Shown here: piece by piece, positions 16,349-59,596 of the stretch | How the letters are laid out: each line of letters starts with the position of its first letter | Numbering within the stretch: the stretch's first letter is position 1 | Notes under the pieces: generated by a model | What the model saw: the letters and a program-made list of their open reading frames with translations, nothing else | Told to the model about the DNA's origin: nothing | Databases searched by the model: none | Program-made: the position numbers and the translations under genes | DNA from: Octopus vulgaris | Lineage: Eukaryota | Assembly (NCBI GenBank): GCA_951406725.2 | Contig: OX597822.1 | Coordinates: 20,026,001-20,090,000, forward strand | Reading direction: 5' to 3' | DNA: 64,000 nt

Positions 16349-16448
16349 NNNNNNNNNNNNNNNNNNNNNNNNNNNNNNNNNNNNNNNNNNNNNNNNNNNN
16401 NNNNNNNNNNNNNNNNNNNNNNNNNNNNNNNNNNNNNNNNNNNNNNNN
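16349..16448. other. Assembly gap (100 N)
   Basis: Run of N following a (CTT)n microsatellite. Confidence 1.
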
Positions 16449-17606
16449 AATAGTGTTTTTTTGAGGTCTTGAAGGCGTATTTCTGGTGCATACCCTTTTA
16501 GCTAAACTGAAAGGGATATTTGTCTTGATGTGTTTTGGGTGGCATGAACTAAAGAGGAGGTATTGTTGTGAGTCTGTAGGTTTGTGGTAGATGTCTGTTA
16601 TGATTTGGTTCTCAGGTGTTTTTATAATTAGGAGATCAAGGAATGGGAGATGATGTTTGCTTAATTCCATAGTGAATTGGATGTTGGGATGTATGTTGTT
16701 TAGTGTGGTTTTGAATTCCAGGAGTTTTTCATAAGGTTCTTTCCATATGATGAAACAATCTTCCAAATACCTTTTCCAGTTTTCCAGGTGTGGAAGACAT
16801 GTCCAAATTTCTGGCGTGATATTTCATAGAGTGATAGTTCGAAGAAACCCATTATGAGGTTCGCAAGGACTGGTGCAGCCTTGGTACCCATCGCAATACC
16901 ACATTTTTGACGGTAGTGTGTGTCGTCGAAGAGAAAAAAATTGTTAGTCAGAATGAACTTGAGAGATTCTGTAATAAAAGTCTTGTTAATGCGGTCAGGG
17001 AATGTCTCTGGGTGTTTTTCTAGCCAGAAGTCAATAGCCTCTATACCATATTCATGTGGGATGTTGGTGTAGAGGTCGATGACATCAGAGGATACCAGGA
17101 GCGCCTCCTCGTTAACTGTTTTCGGGAGGTGTTTGAGCATGTCCAGATCATCCCTAATGAAACTTTTGATGTGAGTAAGGAAAGGTTTCAAAAGGATGTC
17201 TAGGAAATTACTCAGGCGGTGTGTTTTACAGGAGGTACCAGCCACGATGGGCCTTAGTTTTAGGTCCTCCGGTGCTTTGATGTTGATGTGGATGTCAGTG
17301 GAGAGTTTGCAGGCTTCGGTGATGTATTTGTTTTTATGGATTTTAGGAAGGCCATAAAAAAGGCTGGGCTTGCATTTGAAATTGGTGATATAATCCCTTT
17401 CTTTTTCTGTGAGTCCCTGACCGTGTTGGCGTATGAGTGTTGTGAGGTTTCTGATTGTTTTTTGCTGTTTATAGTTGTTAATAACCTCATAGAAAATGTT
17501 GTTGTTAAGCATGGAAAGTACTAGGTGTTTATAAAATTCCGTGTCCATAAGGACCACAGCGCTCCCTTTGTCAGCTTCTTTGATGGTAAGGTTTTTATCC
17601 TGTTGT
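16449..17606 (-). mobile_element. Penelope-like element reverse transcriptase, 5'-truncated and frameshifted, running into the gap
   Basis: Motifs IKEADKGSAVVLM, FYGLPKIHK, RPIV, DVIDLYTNIP, QKCGIAMGT, KRYLEDCFIIW (catalytic DD appears as ED), LPFLD and YHKPTDS...HP. Confidence 0.92.
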
Positions 17607-19510: not shown

Positions 19511-19672
19511 ATTAGGGTATTATTGTTTATAACAATATCAGTGATTTAATAATTAAGGGTACTAACAAACAGAACTGGCATGCTAAGTATAGCAGTCAAA
19601 ATGACCAAACCGCAAGTTTTCACTAAAACACAAAGGTGAACACTAACAAATGAATAACAATCCTAAAATCGT

Positions 19673-19902
19673 AAAGTGTACTAGCCATCTCAATGTGGCT
19701 AGCCACTGGGAGTGGGTGTTACTGAAGCTTTTAGCCCCAGGAGATCATCGTCTCCAGCTGGCTTTAGACACACCTTCTGTGCCCTTCTGATATTCGCAAA
19801 GGGAGGTCATCCCCTCTCCAAAACCTAAGTGATACGCACGGACTATAGTTTCGAGGTTTTTGCCTCTCGTCAACGTACGGTAATCACCGGTTTTCGATTG
19901 GA
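19673..19902 (-). mobile_element. Hammerhead-containing short element, downstream half of the copy split by the Tx1 insertions
   Basis: Near-identical reverse complement of ~27225-27454. Confidence 0.9.
19835..19879 (-). ncRNA. Minimal type-I hammerhead ribozyme
   Basis: Minus strand reads CGTACG-TTGACGA-GAGG(CAAAAA)CCTC-GAAAC-TATA-GTC^CGTGCG. It has a palindromic stem III (ACTATAGT) and is a C3U variant. Confidence 0.85.
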
Positions 19903-21507
19903 TTTATCTTTATTATAGGCACTAAGGCCCGAATTAAGAGGGGACATTACAAAACAGGACATGGGGTACATATAATAAAAAAATCGAAAAATATGAAGTG
20001 AAATGAATATTTATAATGGATTAGATGGAACGGATTACGAGCCCCCCAAAACTCGCAGCTTCATTTAAAACACAGTTCTGCTATACTGGTCGTTCATCTG
20101 TCAGGTATTCTATCAACCTCTCCTGATCCACAATAGCTGGCAAAGTGTCATAACGTACATATAACCATTCACATACACTATAATCATCTCTCATTTTCTC
20201 CAATGTCTCTCTCTCCACGATTACCGCCTTCCACTGGTCATCATATATTTCTGGGTTCAACTTTACTCTAATTAAACCTTTCCTACCTGCCAACATCTTT
20301 TCCGTATTTTTGTCCTTGAAATATAACATTACCACTCTGTGTTTCTTTCCTTTGGGTCTTCCTCCTCTCTTACAACCTTTCAACTGCTCTTCCATTCTTC
20401 TGTCCCATTCTTCCTCTGCTGTTAATTTTGCTGGTTCACTTGCTTTTGCTTCGCACGTTCGGTCTTTTCTCTCGTCAGTAATATTGTTTTTCGCTTTTTT
20501 CTTCTTCTTTTTTTGTTCTTTGAGTAGTGATTCCACCCGCGTTCTTTTTCTATTTTCTTTCTCCAACTCTTCACCACTTTCCACATTATCTGTAGTGATG
20601 ATTTCCTCCTCCACACACGTATCTTTCCACTCCTTCGTTAAAGCCTCCAGTGCTATCGTTTTCTCCTGCACTTCTCCCAGCGGACACACATCCTTCATGT
20701 GGCCTCTTATTTTGCAATTGTAACATACTGGGAGTCTCCCCTCCACCACGACTCTAAGACGTGTCTCATCAGGGAACACCAACTTCTCCGGGATGTTGTA
20801 CAGGTCTGGCACGGTTATATGTACCAGAACCTGCACCGTATATCCCCACCACTTTACTTCTGTTGACCTTTCCACCTTCAACACCTCAACGCTTTCCTTG
20901 CAGTTGAAAACCACTGCCGCTAGAATCCTTTCTATATTAAGCTCCGGCGAAATCCTACCGATTCTTATTCTTACTGCCCTCTTTCCGCAGTAACCTGGTA
21001 ATAATGTCCATCTTTCAGATTTCAAAATTTTCGTGGCATTCCTTCTCGCTTCATTTTCATTTTTAAAATGGACAACCACTGTAGCGTATTTTCTTCCTCT
21101 GTTGTAAAAAGTAGGTTCTCCCTCAATTCCCTGCAGATATTTCTCTATTTCCTCCGTCTCTGCCACTTCTATTTTCTTTGAAGTCACGCTCCACGTTCTG
21201 TATGTTATCATACGTTTCTCCGCTTCTGTTGCTTCTTCTTCAGACTTTGTGACTCTCACACAATCACCTTCCTTCTTCAAGCTGTCGAAATATTTTTCCA
21301 AAGTCTCCTTCTCGACTACCACTTCTTCCAGCTCTAGTTCACTCGCAGTCAGGCTTCTGCCTGCCACTCCCGCATACGTCTGGGCTTGCATTTTCGAAAA
21401 ATCTCCAAAAAAATTTCACCACGTCTCAACGGCCTCCACCAACAAACTCGAACTCACAACCTCAACACACCAATAACGCAATCAAAAATTCCGACACAAA
21501 AAAAAAG
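19903..21507 (-). mobile_element. ORF1-only (HAL1-like) non-autonomous Tx1/L1-clade element, ~1.6 kb
   Basis: Bounded by the 15-bp repeat at 21508-21522 and 19888-19902. It has a T-rich 5' UTR, a single ORF and a ~180-bp 3' UTR ending ATAATAAAGATAAA, identical to the neighbouring full LINE's terminus. There is no ORF2. Confidence 0.85.
20081..21391 (-). CDS. Tx1/L1-clade ORF1-like nucleic-acid-binding protein (436 aa) with CCHC zinc knuckle
   Basis: Uninterrupted ORF. It has an N-terminal TYAGVAG and VVVEGRLPVCYNCKIRGHMKDVC (CX2CX4HX4C), and is homologous to VSVEGRRPRCFKCGQKGHVRSVC in the adjacent LINE. Confidence 0.85.
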   Translation of the reverse strand: MQAQTYAGVAGRSLTASELELEEVVVEKETLEKYFDSLKKEGDCVRVTKSEEEATEAEKRMITYRTWSVTSKKIEVAETEEIEKYLQGIEGEPTFYNRGRKYATVVVHFKNENEARRNATKILKSERWTLLPGYCGKRAVRIRIGRISPELNIERILAAVVFNCKESVEVLKVERSTEVKWWGYTVQVLVHITVPDLYNIPEKLVFPDETRLRVVVEGRLPVCYNCKIRGHMKDVCPLGEVQEKTIALEALTKEWKDTCVEEEIITTDNVESGEELEKENRKRTRVESLLKEQKKKKKKAKNNITDERKDRTCEAKASEPAKLTAEEEWDRRMEEQLKGCKRGGRPKGKKHRVVMLYFKDKNTEKMLAGRKGLIRVKLNPEIYDDQWKAVIVERETLEKMRDDYSVCEWLYVRYDTLPAIVDQERLIEYLTDERPV

Positions 21508-21819
21508 CGGTTTTCGATTGGATTTATCTTTATTATGATCAAGTGATCTAACATAGAATTGGGACATTACAGGACAAAACAATTACAAAAATGCTATGCG
21601 AGTTCGAATGAAATTATAAAAATTACAAAAATAAAATTTTATGTAACTCGAACGAAAACTTGGCTTACTTTTGCCTTTATCACGAGAACGTATGTTTTCT
21701 TTTTTTTATTATTATTTCTTTATTTTAAACAGTTATGTACAGTGAAAGGGAATGGGAGGTACAAGTTTCAATTTTGAACCCGGCAGCCTATAAATCCCAG
21801 CAGCTGATTTTTCCTTTCC

Positions 21820-24800
21820 TCGATGATTAAGCTGGGTTACTCTCACCCACCTTTCTCATCACATCCTTCCAACGTTCCATATACTCTTTCTGTGGCAGGC
21901 TCCTCTTCTCCAACCCCATCTTGCTCTTCAGATGATATCCGAAGTATTTTAACAAACCCGGGCCAGAGATAAAGGACCCTTTCACAAGACCTTCCAATCT
22001 AGTTCTCCATACACACTCTTTTCAATACTGCCACCGTAGAGTAAAAACAAGCCTTACCTTCCTTTGAAGAGTCCAGTTGGCGGTATCATCTTAATCATAG
22101 ATCCAGCCGACAGCTGTACTCGTCCCAGATGCGACAACACGTGTTCAACGTAACTTATCAAGCCTGACAGCTCCCGACATTGTACAAAAGCGTGTTGAAC
22201 GGTTTCATCGTCCAACCCACATCTTGGACACGTCGGTGGCACTGACATTCCGTGCCAGGATGACTTCTCGCGAACAGGTAATGCATTCCTATAGCACTGT
22301 CAGGTCAGGGATTTTTGGTAATTATCCAAATACCCCGACCTGAAAGTCTTCTTAAACAGGTTGGAGAGTTGATCTTCATCGAACCCCAAAGCCCTTCCTA
22401 GGACGTCGTCATTTCCTTCTACCAGCCCTTTATAGAACACCGAGGTGGTATTCCCGCTGCCGGCCTTGCCCATCTTGTGGATCAGCCAGAGTGGCTGTCG
22501 GCACTCCTTCTGCCATGAAGTCAGGTTACGTCCTTTAATGAGACCGGGTGTAAATCCCTCCATAGAGGCCGGTCGCGGGAAGGATTCCTCTGCCAGCGAA
22601 CTCCACACCTTATCATCCTCCAGGTAACACCAGGTGTCTCAGCCACAACGCATGCTTGCGCATCATTAGCCAAGGCATCCCCAGTCCACCCGTTAGCTGT
22701 TCCTGGCAACACACGGAGCGTCTCACAAGTGGCTTTCCTCCTTTCCACAAAAAGCGGAAAAGGAGTCGTTCCAATTTGTTTAACCACGAATCGGGGCAAG
22801 GCACGACGGTCAGGTGGTAGGTGACGACAGAGGCTATAAACAGCTGTGCCACCTCCGCCCTCCCTTTCAAGGAAAGATGCCTTCCGGACCACTTCCGTAC
22901 TATGGCATCCACCTTGCTCGTTACCTCGCTCCAATTCTTCTCCGTCTGGGAGTCTGGACCAAACCAGACTCTGAGCAATTTAACAGGACCATCCGTCCAG
23001 TGTCCAACAACACTGGACGGTATCGGCTTGTTCCTCCAGGTGCCGAGGCGCAAACCGATGGACTTGTCCCTGTTAACTTTTGCCCCTGCCACCGCTTCGT
23101 ATCTATGGAGAGCACCTGCTACCCGAGGTAGCTGTGTTCCGTTGGACACGATGAGGGTGACGTCATCCGCATAGGCAGAAATAGACTTACCGCATCCGAT
23201 TTCATTAGGGTTGCGTCCCAACTTCTCCAGCTTCCGCAGCAATGGCTCAAGAGCCAAAACATACAGGAGCGGGGACAAGGGGCACCCTTGACGAACTGAA
23301 CGCTTGATCGAAAACGGCTCCGTTAGGTAACCGTTTATCTGGACTGTGGACTTGATGCCGCTGTACATAGCTGAGATCCACCCGCAGAAGCCAGAGCCCA
23401 GCCCAGCCGCTTCGAGGACCGCCGCCAAGTACCGATGGTCTACCCGATCAAACGCTTTACTTTGGTCTAAATGGACCAATGCCCCTCCTTTGCCGTCTAA
23501 TTTCCCGACCCTATCTATAGTGTAGCGGAGAAGGTGAAGATTATCCTGGATCGACCTGCCTGGGATTGCACATGTCTGTGCCTTCCCGACAAGTTTCTCC
23601 ACGACAGCCGTCAGCCTTTTTGCTAACACCTTGGCCAAAATCTTAAACTTTACATTAAGTAGAGTTATGGGCCTATAATTACTAATACTGTCCCCCTTGC
23701 TCAGGTCTTTCTGGACAAGCGTCACAACTCCCCGACTCACAGAGCTGGGAATCCTCCCATTCTGTTGCCAGTTTGCATAGACGCTTGCCAGTATGTCCCC
23801 GAACAAGTCCGGCATACAACAATAAAATTCATAGGGCAGACCATCCAACCCCGACGACTTTTCCCCGGCGCACATAACCCCTCTTACCTCCGCGGGAGAG
23901 ATCGATCCTTCACAGCACTCCGCCTCACCTGCCGAGAGCCGAGGCCCACCAGCTAGGAAGCCCTTTAAGGTCTCCCTACGCTCGAGCGGACCACCGTCCC
24001 CAAACAGCCGTGCGAAATGCTGGTGAAGGACCTTCTGCATCTCCTCCTGTCCATAGATCTTGCGGTCCTGCTCGTCAGTTAAGGACATAATACAGGACTT
24101 TTTGCCCTTCTGACTCTCCTCACGATGGGCCCATCCAGCAACGTTAATACCTTCTCGTAACTTAGCTCTGACTCTACACCCCTCGTGCTTGGCGTTGAGG
24201 TGACGGTACAATACCGCTCTCGCTGCCAACACTCCGGATGCACAGCCAGATTCCATAGCCTCGTCTAAGTTCTTAACTAATTCGCCCTCTATTCTAGTCC
24301 TATCTAAACTTAGCGGCTTGCTAAATCTAATGGACTCCAAACAGATGGCTCTTTTGAGGGCGAGCCACCATCTATTATTAATTATGGTGCCACATAATGC
24401 CCTCTGTACTAATTCCTTAATCCGGGTACGGAAAGCTTCACAAGTCAAAATAGACTTGTTCATTTTCCAGTACTCGGAACCTTGTCTATGGCATTTATCT
24501 ACCTGTACCTCACACGTCACAAGTTTGTGATCTATGTAAGGCACAACAGAGAATTGTGGACAGCTAACACTATTCCTATCTCGTTCCTTAACAAATACTC
24601 TATCTATGTACGATCTGCGTGAGCCGTCGTTATTACTCCACGTCCACTGTGGAACGTTCGGCTCATCCAGTCGAAAACGGTTTACTAGATTAAAGCTCGC
24701 TAGTAGAGCCTTGAGGCCAGGATTCCCCTTCCTATCGCTCGAGCCTACACCATCCACCTGCGCATCGAGAATGGTGTTGAAATCCCCTACCAAGACTACC

Positions 24801-25194
24801 GTTTTGGACGTCACTAGAAAGTGCTCCAGTTCCCGAAAAAACCGGTCTGCCCACGTCCATTAGGAGCGTAGACAGCCACCAACCTGAAGGACTGCTTACT
24901 CACGTGCGTCACATCTAGGATAACCAGCCTACCTTCTGGGTCCAGAAAGACAGTACTTACCTGTAAGTCCAAGTTCTTCCTGAAAAGAACTGCCACGCCT
25001 GCACCTCCCTCCCGGCTAGGAGAAATAAATTTCTCGTAACCATTGAGAAGTGGTGAGAACGCTTGGGGTCCTTTCATCTTGGACTCGGTAACAATAGCTA
25101 CATCGATTCTATGTGAAATGAGGTCGTCCCGAAAACAAGCCTGTTTCCATTTCGACCCCATTCCACGCACATTTATACAACCTAACTTAATCAT
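21820..25194 (-). pseudogene. ORF2: AP endonuclease, reverse transcriptase and C-terminal zinc finger (frameshift ~24814, disruptions from ~22610)
   Basis: INVRG, VYAPN, GDFN, IDR, DHK (APE); SGLDGL, YRPITLLN, LDQSKAFDRV, VRQGCPLSP, YADD (RT); CPRC...ETVQHAFVQC. The L.L.GR...LF.FLW...GGLG motifs are typical of L1/Tx1. Confidence 0.93.
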
Positions 25195-25208
25195 CGAAAA
25201 AAAGAAAA

Positions 25209-26725
25209 TTATTTACTCACGGTTGCGAGAGGGAGCCTGACAGATTCCTTCTGCCTGTCTCCCCCCACACTCGCCGTTGCTGCTGGGCGTTTCACCGGCG
25301 TTGCCACCGGGCCCTGGGTTGGTGTGGCTGCCGGGCTGACGTATAATTTCCCAGTTGTCACCTTCTGGGTGACATCCTTACTGAAGCCGGCTTTTACGTG
25401 GTCTTGTAAGTTTTTTTCTTTCCATCCTTCTTCGCCGACCCTTGCATATCGCCACTCCGCTTCCTTTTCGGTCGCTTTGTAGCAACTGATCTGCGTACTT
25501 GCTTGCACAAATTTTACTACTCTCTCGTCCCTTGTGGTGTATGCTATACATTTTTCATTGGGTTTAAACCCTTTTACAGTTGGGGGGTGGGGTTTGTTAG
25601 AGTGCTGGCCTATAAATGTAGTATCGCCGGGGTGGGATTGGAGGATATTTTTAATTTGTTCGTCTGCGTTGTTTTTTTTTTTGTTACGGATGGGGAGTCA
25701 GGGGTGATGGATTTTTTTCTTTTGTTCGGCACGTTCGTGAATTCCATCTCTTCTTGTATATTTGTTTTTGTTGTATTAATTTCCTCCTTTCCTTTCTCAT
25801 TTTGCATTCCGTTCTTGTCTTCCTCCTTTTTAGAGTTCGACCTGTTTTTTTTTTTCCTCCTTGCTTTCGCCAGTCGTTACTTTGTTCTCCACTTTGCTGC
25901 TTTCTGCGTTCTTCACAGCGTTTTGAGGGGGGGGGGGGGCGTTGCCCGTATTATTTTTCTTTGTGCAAACGGAGCGAACGTGGCCCTTTTGCCCGCACTT
26001 AAAACATCTGGGCCTGCGTCCTTCCACCGAAACTCGTATGGAGTGCCCCTCCCCCACGAAGACTCTGTCTGGTAGGCTTTCCAGCGTCGCATTTTCCGCC
26101 TGGATAATCATCTCCAGCTGCTGGCCTCTCCAGTGTTTTGCTATTTTCCTCTTCATACTAAAAATTGTCAATTTTGATTCAACATCAAAAATGACCGCTG
26201 TTGCCGCCCACATCACGTCGTAGCCCCTTGGTATATCTTCCAGTGTCACTTTTGCTATTCTGCACCCCAAATATAAGGGTAGTAGTATTATGTTCTCGTT
26301 TTTCAACGTTTGCGTCGAAATTTGCCTTGCTTCTTCCGCCGCCTCGAAATGCGCCTCCACTGTAGCGCTTCTTGCACCTCGGTTGACATGACGAACTTTG
26401 CTTCATATTGGTGCCATACACTTTTCGACCATTTCGTTTTTTACGTCGGTCATTCGTTTTTCTTTTATATTGTACACCTTATAGGTGACCATTTTTTCCC
26501 TTATTGCCTCGGTACCAATCGTTTTTCTTCACCACTTTTTTGCACAAGCGGTCTGAACTTAAATAGTCTTTCCATTGACACCTCAATTTCTTCCACTTCG
26601 CCACCTACGGCGTCTGAAAAACTGGGTTTTGCCTGTGTTTCCGTTTGTTTAACAGTTGTTGTACTTTCTCCCATCTCGGGAAAGTCTTTTTTTGAACTTA
26701 AGTCTAATTTCATATTAGACAACAC
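25209..26725 (-). pseudogene. ORF1 (CCHC knuckle), frameshifted
   Basis: ORF pieces 26501-26725, 25830-26360 (CFKCGQKGHVRSVC), 25610-25807 and 25209-25508. At least one break lies near a homopolymer run. Confidence 0.85.
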
Positions 26726-27067
26726 AAACTTGTCACAAATGACAAGGGAATTTTTTTCAAAAATAACCTATACAGGTTAAGAGTTCACACAAAAAAAACA
26801 CACACACACACAGAAATATTTCTACACCGAAGGGCGAAAATTACTGGGTCAAAAACAGTTCAACAAGTATTATACGTGTAACACAACAAAGTAGACAAAC
26901 GGAAACGAACTCACACAACGATTTGCAGCAACAGAAAAATATTTGATATACTCCGAGGAAAAATTCAAAAAGCGGCGGTTTTCGATTGGAGAGACCTGTT
27001 TGCGAATATTTATTTAATGTTTTTCCCAGCAACCACTGTCACTGATTTCGAAAAACTGTCTGAAAGC

Positions 27068-27207: not shown

Positions 27208-27500
27208 ATTCGCAAACAGGTCTCTCCAATCGAAAACCGGTGATTACCGTACGTTGACGAGAGGCAAAAACCTCGAAACTATAGTCCGTGCGTATCACTT
27301 AGGTTTTCGAGAGGGGATGACCTCCCATTGCGAATATCAGAAGGGCACAGAAAGTGTGTCTAAAGCCAGCTGGAGACGATGATCTCCTGGGGCTAAAAGC
27401 TTCAGTAACACCCACTCCCAGTGGCTAGCCACATTGAGATGGCTAGTATACTTTACGTTGTCGAGCGGTTACTGTTTACATCTCGTTCGGAGATTTATTA
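27208..27500 (+). mobile_element. Uninterrupted copy of the hammerhead-containing element (empty Tx1 target)
   Basis: ATTCGCAAACAGGTCTC-TCCAATCGAAAACCG-GTGATTACCG joins exactly the two flanks of the Tx1 block (26991-27007 and 19673-19887, minus strand). Confidence 0.9.
27248..27292 (+). ncRNA. Minimal type-I hammerhead ribozyme (predicted cleavage after 27286)
   Basis: CGTACG-TTGACGA-GAGG(CAAAAA)CCTC-GAAAC-TATA-GTC^CGTGCG. It sits at the tip of a long stem: 27230-27238 pairs with 27302-27310, and 27207-27215 with 27328-27336. Confidence 0.85.
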
Positions 27501-56880: not shown

Positions 56881-59596
56881 AACAATTGCAGCGTGGGAGG
56901 TGTTTATAAGCCATTTAAGAAACACACAAAAGCCGTTCGATTCACTCCAACATTTAAGTTTAATTTGTCAAAATATTTTCGTCGCTAAAATCCGCGACCT
57001 GTTCACTGACAAAGTCCGTGCTGCATCTAAGAAAGTAACAGTTAGTTCGTCATATATATGTATGTACGTATGTATGTGTGTATGTATGCATACATGTGTG
57101 TATGTATGTACATATTCATGTCCGCACATACGCCTGTGTATGCATGTATGTATGTATGTATGTATGTATGTATGTATGTATGTATATATGTATGTGTGTG
57201 TATAAGCACGCACATACACTCTATAAAACATAAAGTTATAAACCTGTAGCGATGGATGGATGTAGAGTGACCACTCATCACAACGCTATCAAATTTCAAC
57301 TCCCTACGGCCGAGGCTAGAAAGTGAATTTATGACGCTTGCTCACAAGAACTATACCCTAAAATCTATTATCAGATTTTTATCTCTATATCACAGAACTA
57401 ATGTTTTACTATTGTTCGTATGTATGTATGTATGTGCGTATGTATGTATGTGCGTATGTATGTATGTATGTATGTATGTATGTATGTATGTATGTATGTA
57501 TGTATGTATGTATGTATGTATGTACATACGTACGCATGTGCGTATGTATGTATACGCGCCCGTATGCATGTGCCCATGTATGTGTGTGTGTACATGTACG
57601 TGCGTATGTACGTGTGTATGCCCATACGTAGGTATGTATGTATGTTTGTATTCATGTGCTACGTATGTATGTGAGTGTCTAGGAGAATGGGCAGATGTGT
57701 CCGTGAGAGTGTGTACATGTGTATGTGTATGTGAACGTATGTCCGTGTACTGGCATGTGTCCGTCCAAGTTGTGTACATGACTGTTACTTAGCTGAAGGT
57801 TGTATACATATTTACATATATGTTTGTATAGACGCACACATATATATATATATATGTGTGTGGGTGTGTGTTTGTTCCTCTCATCGTCGTCTAACCGTGA
57901 ATGGGTACAACGCCTAGGTGCAACTGTTCGTATCAAACAACGTCTGCTCATACCGTTGTATATAACTGCACATACGCATTGCAACCTGTATGTAAGGACT
58001 ACAGGTGAAAGGGAGAGAGAGAGAGGGGTGGTTATAGAATAGTCCTTCTGAATGGGATCTGGATGTTATTCCATTCGGACTTTCGGTTGAGAGTAGGTTT
58101 GTATTCTTGTATACAAACAGCTTCTGTGACCTGTCTCAACATTGCATCGGTGGGATGTGTAGATAGGATGTTCAACTTAAGCTCCCTAAGGATCCCTTGT
58201 GGCAGTCTACAGCATGTTGGTAGAAGATGGAGTTTGGCTTCCTTTCAATGTAGTTGTCCATTGAAAGGAAGCCAAACTCCATCTTCTACCAACATGCTGT
58301 AGACTGCCACAAGGGATCCTTAGGGGAGCTTAAGTTGAACATCCTATCTACACATCCCACCGATGCAATGTTGAGACAGGTCACAGAAGCTGTTTGTATA
58401 CAAGAATACAAACCTACTCTCAACCGAAAGTCCGAATGGAATAACATCCAGATCCCATTCAGAAGGACTATTCTATAACCACCCTCTCTCTCTCTCCCTT
58501 TCACCTGTAGTCCTTACATACAGGTTGCAATGCGTATGTGCAGTTATATACAACGGTATGAGCAGACGTTGTTTGATACGAACAGTTGCACCTAGGCGTT
58601 GTACCCATTCACGGTTAGACGACGATGAGAGGAACAAACACACACCCACACACATATATATATATATATGTGTGCGTCTATACAAACATATATGTAAATA
58701 TGTATACAACCTTCAGCTAAGTAACAGTCATGTACACAACTTGGACGGACACATGCCAGTACACGGACATACGTTCACATACACATACACATGTACACAC
58801 TCTCACGGACACATCTGCCCATTCTCCTAGACACTCACATACATACGTAGCACATGAATACAAACATACATACATACCTACGTATGGGCATACACACGTA
58901 CATACGCACGTACATGTACACACACACATACATGGGCACATGCATACGGGCGCGTATACATACATACGCACATGCGTACGTATGTACATACATACATACA
59001 TACATACATACATACATACATACGCACATACATACATACGCACATACATACATACATACGAACAATAGTAAAACATTAGTTCTGTGATATAGAGATAAAA
59101 ATCTGATAATAGATTTTAGGGTATAGTTCTTGTGAGCAAGCGTCATAAATTCACTTTCTAGCCTCGGCCGTAGGGAGTTGAAATTTGATAGCGTTGTGAT
59201 GAGTGGTCACTCTACATCCATCCATCGCTACAGGTTTATAACTTTATGTTTTATAGAGTGTATGTGCGTGCTTATACACACACATACATATATACATACA
59301 TACATACATACATACATACATACATACATACATGCATACACAGGCGTATGTGCGGACATGAATATGTACATACATACACACATGTATGCATACATACACA
59401 CATACATACGTACATACATATATATGACGAACTAACTGTTACTTTCTTAGATGCAGCACGGACTTTGTCAGTGAACAGGTCGCGGATTTTAGCGACGAAA
59501 ATATTTTGACAAATTAAACTTAAATGTTGGAGTGAATCGAACGGCTTTTGTGTGTTTCTTAAATGGCTTATAAACACCTCCCACGCTGCAATTGTT
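56881..59596. repeat. 2.7-kb near-perfect palindrome made of two head-to-head PLE 3' ends
   Basis: Arms are 56881-58250 and 58259-59596 with the 8-nt spacer TAGTTGTC. The centre encodes QHAVDCH...RQVTEAVCI...LNRKSEW (GIY-YIG-like C-terminus). Only the right arm has a ~57-bp extension before (TA)n. Confidence 0.9.

Follow-up and report, generated by a model that had tools for sequence, protein, structure and literature searches.

The octopus element described here belongs to a multi-copy non-LTR retroelement family that codes for ORF1 only, is under purifying selection and forms mixed tandem arrays with an L1/Tx1-group LINE. Insertions of both partners lie at a fixed distance behind predicted promoter motifs in otherwise unlike sequences. 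With a probability of about 0.6, we read this as a system in which ORF1p would act in cis and ORF2p would be supplied in trans, the element would integrate where a Pol II-type initiation complex is assembled, and the captured promoter would then drive its transcription. ORF1-only LINE derivatives are already known, and the interest is mainly in the targeting. In animal APE-type LINEs, the choice of target is usually explained by sequence recognition on the part of the endonuclease. Here, near-identical enzymes and passengers that carry no enzyme are found at the same promoter-relative position across unlike sequences.

Two elements in one target site

The window, a stretch of 64,000 nucleotides from Octopus vulgaris (contig OX597822.1), carries the ORF1-only (HAL1-like) element on the minus strand at 19903..21507 (1,605 bp). 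The unit consists of a 5' UTR of 116 nt with a T-rich leader (21392..21507, minus), an intact ORF1 of 436 aa (20081..21391, minus) and a 3' UTR of 178 nt, and no ORF2 is found within its 1.6 kb. This confirms the layout given in the original prediction, including the CCHC zinc knuckle at aa 222-237 (20681..20728, minus), which is visible as CX2CX4HX4C and gives a weak zf-CCHC match (E 0.0077, under the Pfam cut-off).

An L1/Tx1-group LINE with ORF1, APE, RT and zf-RVT lies at 21523..26975 of the same strand. An identical 15-mer occurs three times on the minus strand, as target-site duplication (TSD) upstream of the LINE (26976..26990), between the LINE and the ORF1-only unit (21508..21522) and behind the unit (19888..19902), where the body of the hammerhead repeat begins with it. 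Its core, GGTTTTCGATTGG, has four occurrences in the window versus 0.08 expected. The threefold repeat implies two insertions into one site, each with its own TSDs, so that the LINE and the 1,605-bp unit stand head to tail and the boundaries of the unit are exact. The best solved relative of the LINE is human L1 ORF2p (E 2e-48; R2: 2e-22), and its architecture is of the Tx1 type, with an APE-RT-zinc finger ORF2 and a CCHC ORF1. It had been called autonomous, which this copy is not, because its ORF1 and ORF2 are frameshifted and split over several frames.

The two elements share their 3' ends, as proposed from the outset. The motif TGTAATGTCCC (19941..19951 in the unit, minus) and the terminus ATAATAAAGATAAA (19903..19916, minus) are each present once in either element and nowhere else in the window. 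Immediately 5' of AATAAA, the unit has a 4-bp hairpin (19917..19930, minus) in the same position as in the LINE and with a different sequence. This architecture, in which AATAAA is preceded by a GTAATGTCC-like motif and a short hairpin, is common to unit and LINE ends; the position of the hairpin is constant and its sequence varies (GGGC/GCCY, GATC/GATC, GCCC/GGGT). Taken alone, the two ends in the window are no more stable than shuffled sequences (z -0.32 for the 58-nt end of the unit). At the 5' side, a short C/G and then T-rich leader had been described for both elements. The T-rich part stands for the unit, and the C/G part looks like target sequence left over from earlier insertions.

The ORF1 of the unit is indeed only distantly similar to that of its neighbour, with 29% identity over aa 54-236, and it aligns with an intact LINE ORF1 copy only over aa 20-239 (29%). 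This N-terminal core is common to LINE ORF1, and the C-terminal region is different. Residues 321-436 (20084..20431, minus) form a confidently predicted alpha/beta domain (pLDDT 88.7) that is conserved in ORF1-only relatives; outside the C-terminus, the full-length model has low confidence. No counterpart of the domain was detected in LINE ORF1, and a suspected homology with the LINE ORF1 C-terminus found no support. No clear family emerges from fold searches, in which the best Z is 5.6 with the whole model and 4.2 with the C-terminal domain; this does not imply a new fold. Likewise, a word-indexed protein search found nothing and an Atlas search with aa 340-436 gave no usable match. As a separate observation, the ORF1 of the unit is a mosaic whose N-terminal part is nearer to the L015 group and whose C-terminal part is nearer to the L007 group, which suggests recombination between subfamilies.

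The target site belongs to a retrozyme-like host repeat of about 355 nt, the downstream part of which spans 19670..19902 (minus). A second, inverted copy at 27225..27457 (plus) is 98% identical to this part. The repeat contains a type I hammerhead-like motif at 19819..19891 (minus; Rfam HH9, E 6.3e-8), whose 37.5 bits are under the Rfam gathering score of 52. At gathering scores, Rfam has no match in the window and matches only U2 in 20 loci. The repeat is of high copy number (2,780 candidates, unit 355-356 nt) and agrees in size and motif with the 170-400-nt repeats with type I hammerhead that define non-LTR retrozymes, with HH9 below its gathering score. Judged from sequence alone, it resembles the non-LTR retrozymes of mussel, coral and salamander; the mussel units measure about 350-390 bp in the section cited here (PMC7229834). 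A Penelope pLTR was considered as the target and dropped, given the 355-nt unit and the lack of any match to the Penelope-like ORF of the window in 30 host-repeat loci. Elsewhere in the window, a 282-aa ORF at 16700-17548 (minus) has no Pfam match and adjoins an N gap near 16350-16450; by its motifs, it looks like a Penelope-type RT fragment.

An ORF1-only family and its presumed partner

Copies of the unit are numerous. A DNA search yields at least 64 matches among the 40 of 317 candidates scored, many across the whole unit at 74-95% identity, and a protein search yields at least 110 matches (96 candidates scored). The exact 3'-end pattern of ORF1-only elements occurs at 90 places genome-wide and has no occurrence in the control. 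Copies carry their own TSDs and 5' truncations, and some stand in tandem arrays. That the unit arose by a single internal deletion within a LINE, or that it is a domesticated gene present once, can practically be discounted: both are refuted by the many dispersed full-length copies, which carry TSDs of their own and keep one ORF1-to-3'UTR layout.

The median dN/dS of ORF1 is 0.19 (11 intact ORFs; 46 pairs with dS above 0.15), with 0.10 at aa 1-240 and 0.29 at aa 346-436, which shows purifying selection. A tree of the ORF1 core places the ORF1-only family in one supported clade distant from LINE ORF1s (39 rows, quick method, long branches included). Named ORF1 relatives comprise 10 proteins from Octopus bimaculoides, O. 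sinensis, O. vulgaris and Argonauta. ORF1 never precedes an ORF2 in the loci examined. In the first 60 loci none is found behind ORF1, all 7 ORF2 matches being upstream or on the opposite strand, and in 43 additional ends the 2.15 kb preceding the 3' end contain no ORF2 match. An endonuclease profile matches once in 108 loci (L260), beyond the AATAAA end of the element. The family is thus HAL1-like in having ORF1 without ORF2, many copies and selection on ORF1, and with its deeply separate clade it represents a long-diverged non-autonomous family and no recent deletion, as had been predicted.

Two further groups are recorded beside the family. Older, more distant families (L289-L308; 148 matches to an O. 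bimaculoides protein) have the C-terminal domain of the family and its type of 3' terminus, which ends most of these 20 loci. A young subfamily (L049-L055, L060, L186, L187, L190) has poly(A) tails and identical copies, and its insertions form arrays at the 5' end of another ORF1-only family, whose ORF1 is 31-38% identical.

Shared target classes, mixed arrays and the common 3' architecture support the view that ORF2 would be borrowed from the LINE lineage, in which no fully intact copy emerged. Among top-scoring LINE matches, 6 of 30 LINE 5' ends follow directly on an ORF1-only 3' end, and 3 of 30 LINE 3' ends stand directly before an ORF1-only unit. The family could also be mobilised mainly by another, unsampled LINE with a closer ORF1, in which case the arrays would reflect shared targets only. 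The separate clades of the two ORF1s at 29% identity, a target class (B) without a found LINE end and the existence of a sister LINE whose 3' UTR differs point in this direction. We nevertheless consider another partner quite unlikely, in view of the identical terminal 14 nt in the two elements of the window and of the distant loci, where an endonuclease follows an ORF with the family's C-terminal domain in 0 of 20 cases. Such a partner would be compatible with the other explanations discussed below. As a separate observation, at L015 731-913 and L112 the 5' part of a LINE, including the first 32 endonuclease codons, is fused to an ORF1-only 3' end, a candidate for deletion within an array or for a template switch.

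Insertion behind promoter motifs

Insertions are in sense orientation with TSDs of 14-17 bp. In the 30 LINE 3' ends, all from top-scoring matches, the following sequence is the hammerhead repeat in 21 cases, U2 snRNA +1 in 3, an ORF1-only unit in 3, a duplicate of the target followed by a further LINE in 2 and other sequence in 1; 29 of 30 are at hammerhead repeats, U2 or tandem partners. For the 90 distinct ORF1-only ends, 55 are scored as hammerhead (one of them false on inspection), 16 as retrozyme-type TSD (with a further element behind nearly all of these), 1 as U2 and 18 as other. After removal of the false call, hammerhead repeats, their TSDs or U2 account for 71 of 90 ends. Each of the 11 exact class-B junctions belongs to an ORF1-only end, and no LINE end turned up in this class. 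The family had been expected to inherit the site specificity of its LINE. This is borne out for the target classes, which are shared, and fails in two respects: the target is a promoter-start position rather than one sequence, and some ORF1-only subfamilies are at classes without a found LINE end.

The remaining 19 of 90 ORF1-only ends, about a fifth, are off these targets; one is a TATA site and many are 5'-truncated. This fraction speaks against promoter-directed targeting and for a reading in which insertion is weakly specific and only copies behind a promoter are transcribed and found lineages. We hold such selection to be very unlikely as the source of the pattern. Choosing masters leaves the sites of their progeny free, yet most progeny are at promoter starts, among them dead, truncated copies like the one at U1.

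In the window, a PSE-like snRNA promoter motif with the core ATCAGT lies at 27033..27049 (minus), 56 nt upstream of the first TSD copy. ATCAGT is present at -56 to -60 in 8 of 12 unlike U1 and U2 promoter types and is taken as the putative PSE of the U1/U2 genes of this genome. With a matrix built from U1 and U2, the best site falls at -50 to -60 in 37 of 42 5' flanks versus 14% of control windows; the misses are 4 mis-anchored rows and 1 true miss (L038), and 3 of the matches are U2 itself. With a matrix of 5 U1 promoter types only, all 11 chosen representatives have their best site at -54 to -60, counted from the start of the TSD; they amount to only about 5 independent PSE classes (four groups, five with U1) because the retrozyme classes are related. 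Three distant copies without PSE have a TATA box at -27, -30 and -31, and L269 sits in a repeat copy without PSE. Insertion at a fixed distance behind a predicted promoter motif, 54-60 nt for the U1/U2-type PSE or 27-31 nt for TATA, is thus shown across unlike sequences, as is the case in TRE5- and Ty3-type targeting. For hammerhead repeats and TATA targets, we infer the start sites from this promoter spacing. Occupied A-type repeats have a PSE in 16 of 16 cases versus 11 of 18 locally intact empty rows (one-sided p 0.006), or in 18 of 19 with three rows added (p 0.017), in samples unmatched by subfamily; among empty A-type rows overall it is 11 of 27. Newt satellite 2 is transcribed from an snRNA-type promoter.

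Several observations on promoter units in this genome stand beside these results. U2 (48 scored) and U1 (42) genes are numerous and have several promoter types (L121-L140, L141-L182). ATCAGT is absent in 15 U6 matches, most of them pseudogene-like, and in a U6-like array on contig C1. Multicopy CCAAT+TATA promoter units (L048, L185, L189, L256) are hit by distant subfamilies, and those of L048, L185 and L189 have no Rfam match.

The U2 insertions are at U2 +1, and the LINEs inserted there start with a remnant of A2-class target sequence, as would be expected if transcription begins at the start site of the host. Following a prediction, a search for element ends at U1 +1 gave 1 match and none in the control. 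It is a 5'-truncated sister LINE (87% identical), distinguished by its 3' UTR, between a U1-type promoter and U1 +1. LINE copies inserted at U2 and those inserted at retrozymes have near-identical endonucleases (23 rows). In 24-nt local windows, 8 target classes have only 6-15 bases in common. A short YYAT(C) motif is common to the A, A1, A2, U2 and U1 sites, and therefore the endonuclease contributes to site choice.

The pattern might arise without any tether to promoter proteins, if a relaxed endonuclease (YYATC-like) acted together with annealing of the target-derived ends of read-through RNA, so that subfamilies return to the target class of their donor; the downstream hammerhead would then possibly trim the read-through ends. 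Such a mechanism is possible, though we doubt it. ORF1-only subfamilies cluster by target though they are expected to share one ORF2, yet they also switch, with 16 changes versus a shuffled mean of 37.0 and 0 of 200 shuffles as low (58 rows, some interrupted). Off-target ends resemble the nearest on-target relative slightly more than expected by chance (86 vs 65.5 matches, p 0.0006), but this resemblance is confounded by subfamily-specific terminal bases, and 8 or more matching bases are found in 3 of 18 ends. For R2, specificity is described as being strengthened by cotranscription (PMC4494074). What annealing and a relaxed endonuclease leave unexplained are the independent jumps to U2, U1 and TATA sites, each at +1, and YYATCG is too frequent a sequence, extrapolating to about 4 million genome sites.

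Proposed mechanism and known systems

In the promoter-directed mechanism that we favor, the RNA would make its own ORF1p and be packaged by it in cis, and ORF2p from the LINE lineage would recognize the shared GTAATGTCC-hairpin-AATAAA end. The RNP would be brought to, or be able to cut only at, an assembled Pol II-type initiation complex (SNAPc/TBP), with a nick within a few nt of +1 and a weak local sequence preference. The new copy would come to lie directly under the host promoter and be transcribed from it, as its target-derived 5' bases would record. The regenerated site behind the promoter could be hit again, giving mixed arrays such as the order PSE-LINE-ORF1-only-hammerhead in the window. 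The structure check proposed for the C-terminal region gave a confidently predicted alpha/beta domain without a clear solved match. As a further suggestion, ORF1 may be kept as the family's own targeting module, its C-terminal domain binding SNAPc/TBP in cis and steering the borrowed RT to self-chosen promoter starts, including classes without a found LINE; we think this unlikely and put it forward tentatively.

Non-autonomous LINE derivatives that code only for ORF1p are described for HAL1, HeT-A and Ag-Sponge (PMC5753468, PMC5786205, in the passages cited), and the octopus family is likewise ORF1 only. It differs from HAL1 in being site-specific, in an ORF1 only 29% identical to that of its presumed partner and with its own predicted C-terminal domain, and in that its subfamilies A-D mostly lack a poly(A) tail at the junction. 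A close parallel in the excerpts of the literature considered is the Dictyostelium pair TRE5-A.1/TRE5-A.2, an L1-clade system whose ORF1-only derivative, TRE5-A.2, is mobilised in trans with ORF1 acting in cis (PMC3159450, PMC5911963) and in which TRE5-A ORF1 binds TFIIIB (PMC3159450). Both systems combine an ORF1-only derivative with position-specific insertion relative to a promoter, the octopus one being known from sequence. In these excerpts, TRE5 insertions lie about 50 bp ahead of Pol III tRNA genes, in opposite orientation and with a promoter of their own, whereas the octopus elements lie in sense orientation at +1 of PSE/TATA units; TRE5-A.2 is also a simple deletion derivative, in contrast to the long-diverged octopus family. 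Yeast Ty3 integrates within 1-4 nt of the transcription start through TBP/Brf1 (PMC5911963, in the part cited), but differs as an LTR element that uses an integrase at Pol III genes.

Among APE-type LINEs, the target-specific Tx1-clade elements Tx1L, Keno and Tx1-Mar, as well as Utopia, are listed at multicopy repeats, other transposons or U2 in the sections cited of PMC4494074, and Keno and Utopia insert before U2 nucleotide 39 according to the passage cited of PMC4640811. The octopus site is U2 +1 and is not the Keno site. The specificity of those LINEs is ascribed to sequence recognition by the endonuclease, unlike the octopus case with near-identical endonucleases at unlike targets. In titles and abstract openings, we found no report of LINEs that target retrozyme or snRNA start sites; the octopus families may already be catalogued in Repbase or Dfam.

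If confirmed, the promoter-directed mechanism would extend transcription-factor-guided integration, as in Ty3 and TRE5, to Pol II-type promoters in an animal. The octopod retrozymes would then be snRNA-promoter-driven units, insertions would map small-RNA start sites, and the question why HAL1-type elements keep ORF1 would become testable. Should ORF1 in addition act as a targeting module, this would be an animal non-LTR system that aims at Pol II-type promoters and takes them over. Apart from these elements, the window contains at 56881-59596 a nested long inverted repeat that is 98-100% complementary and is possibly a foldback or an assembly artefact.
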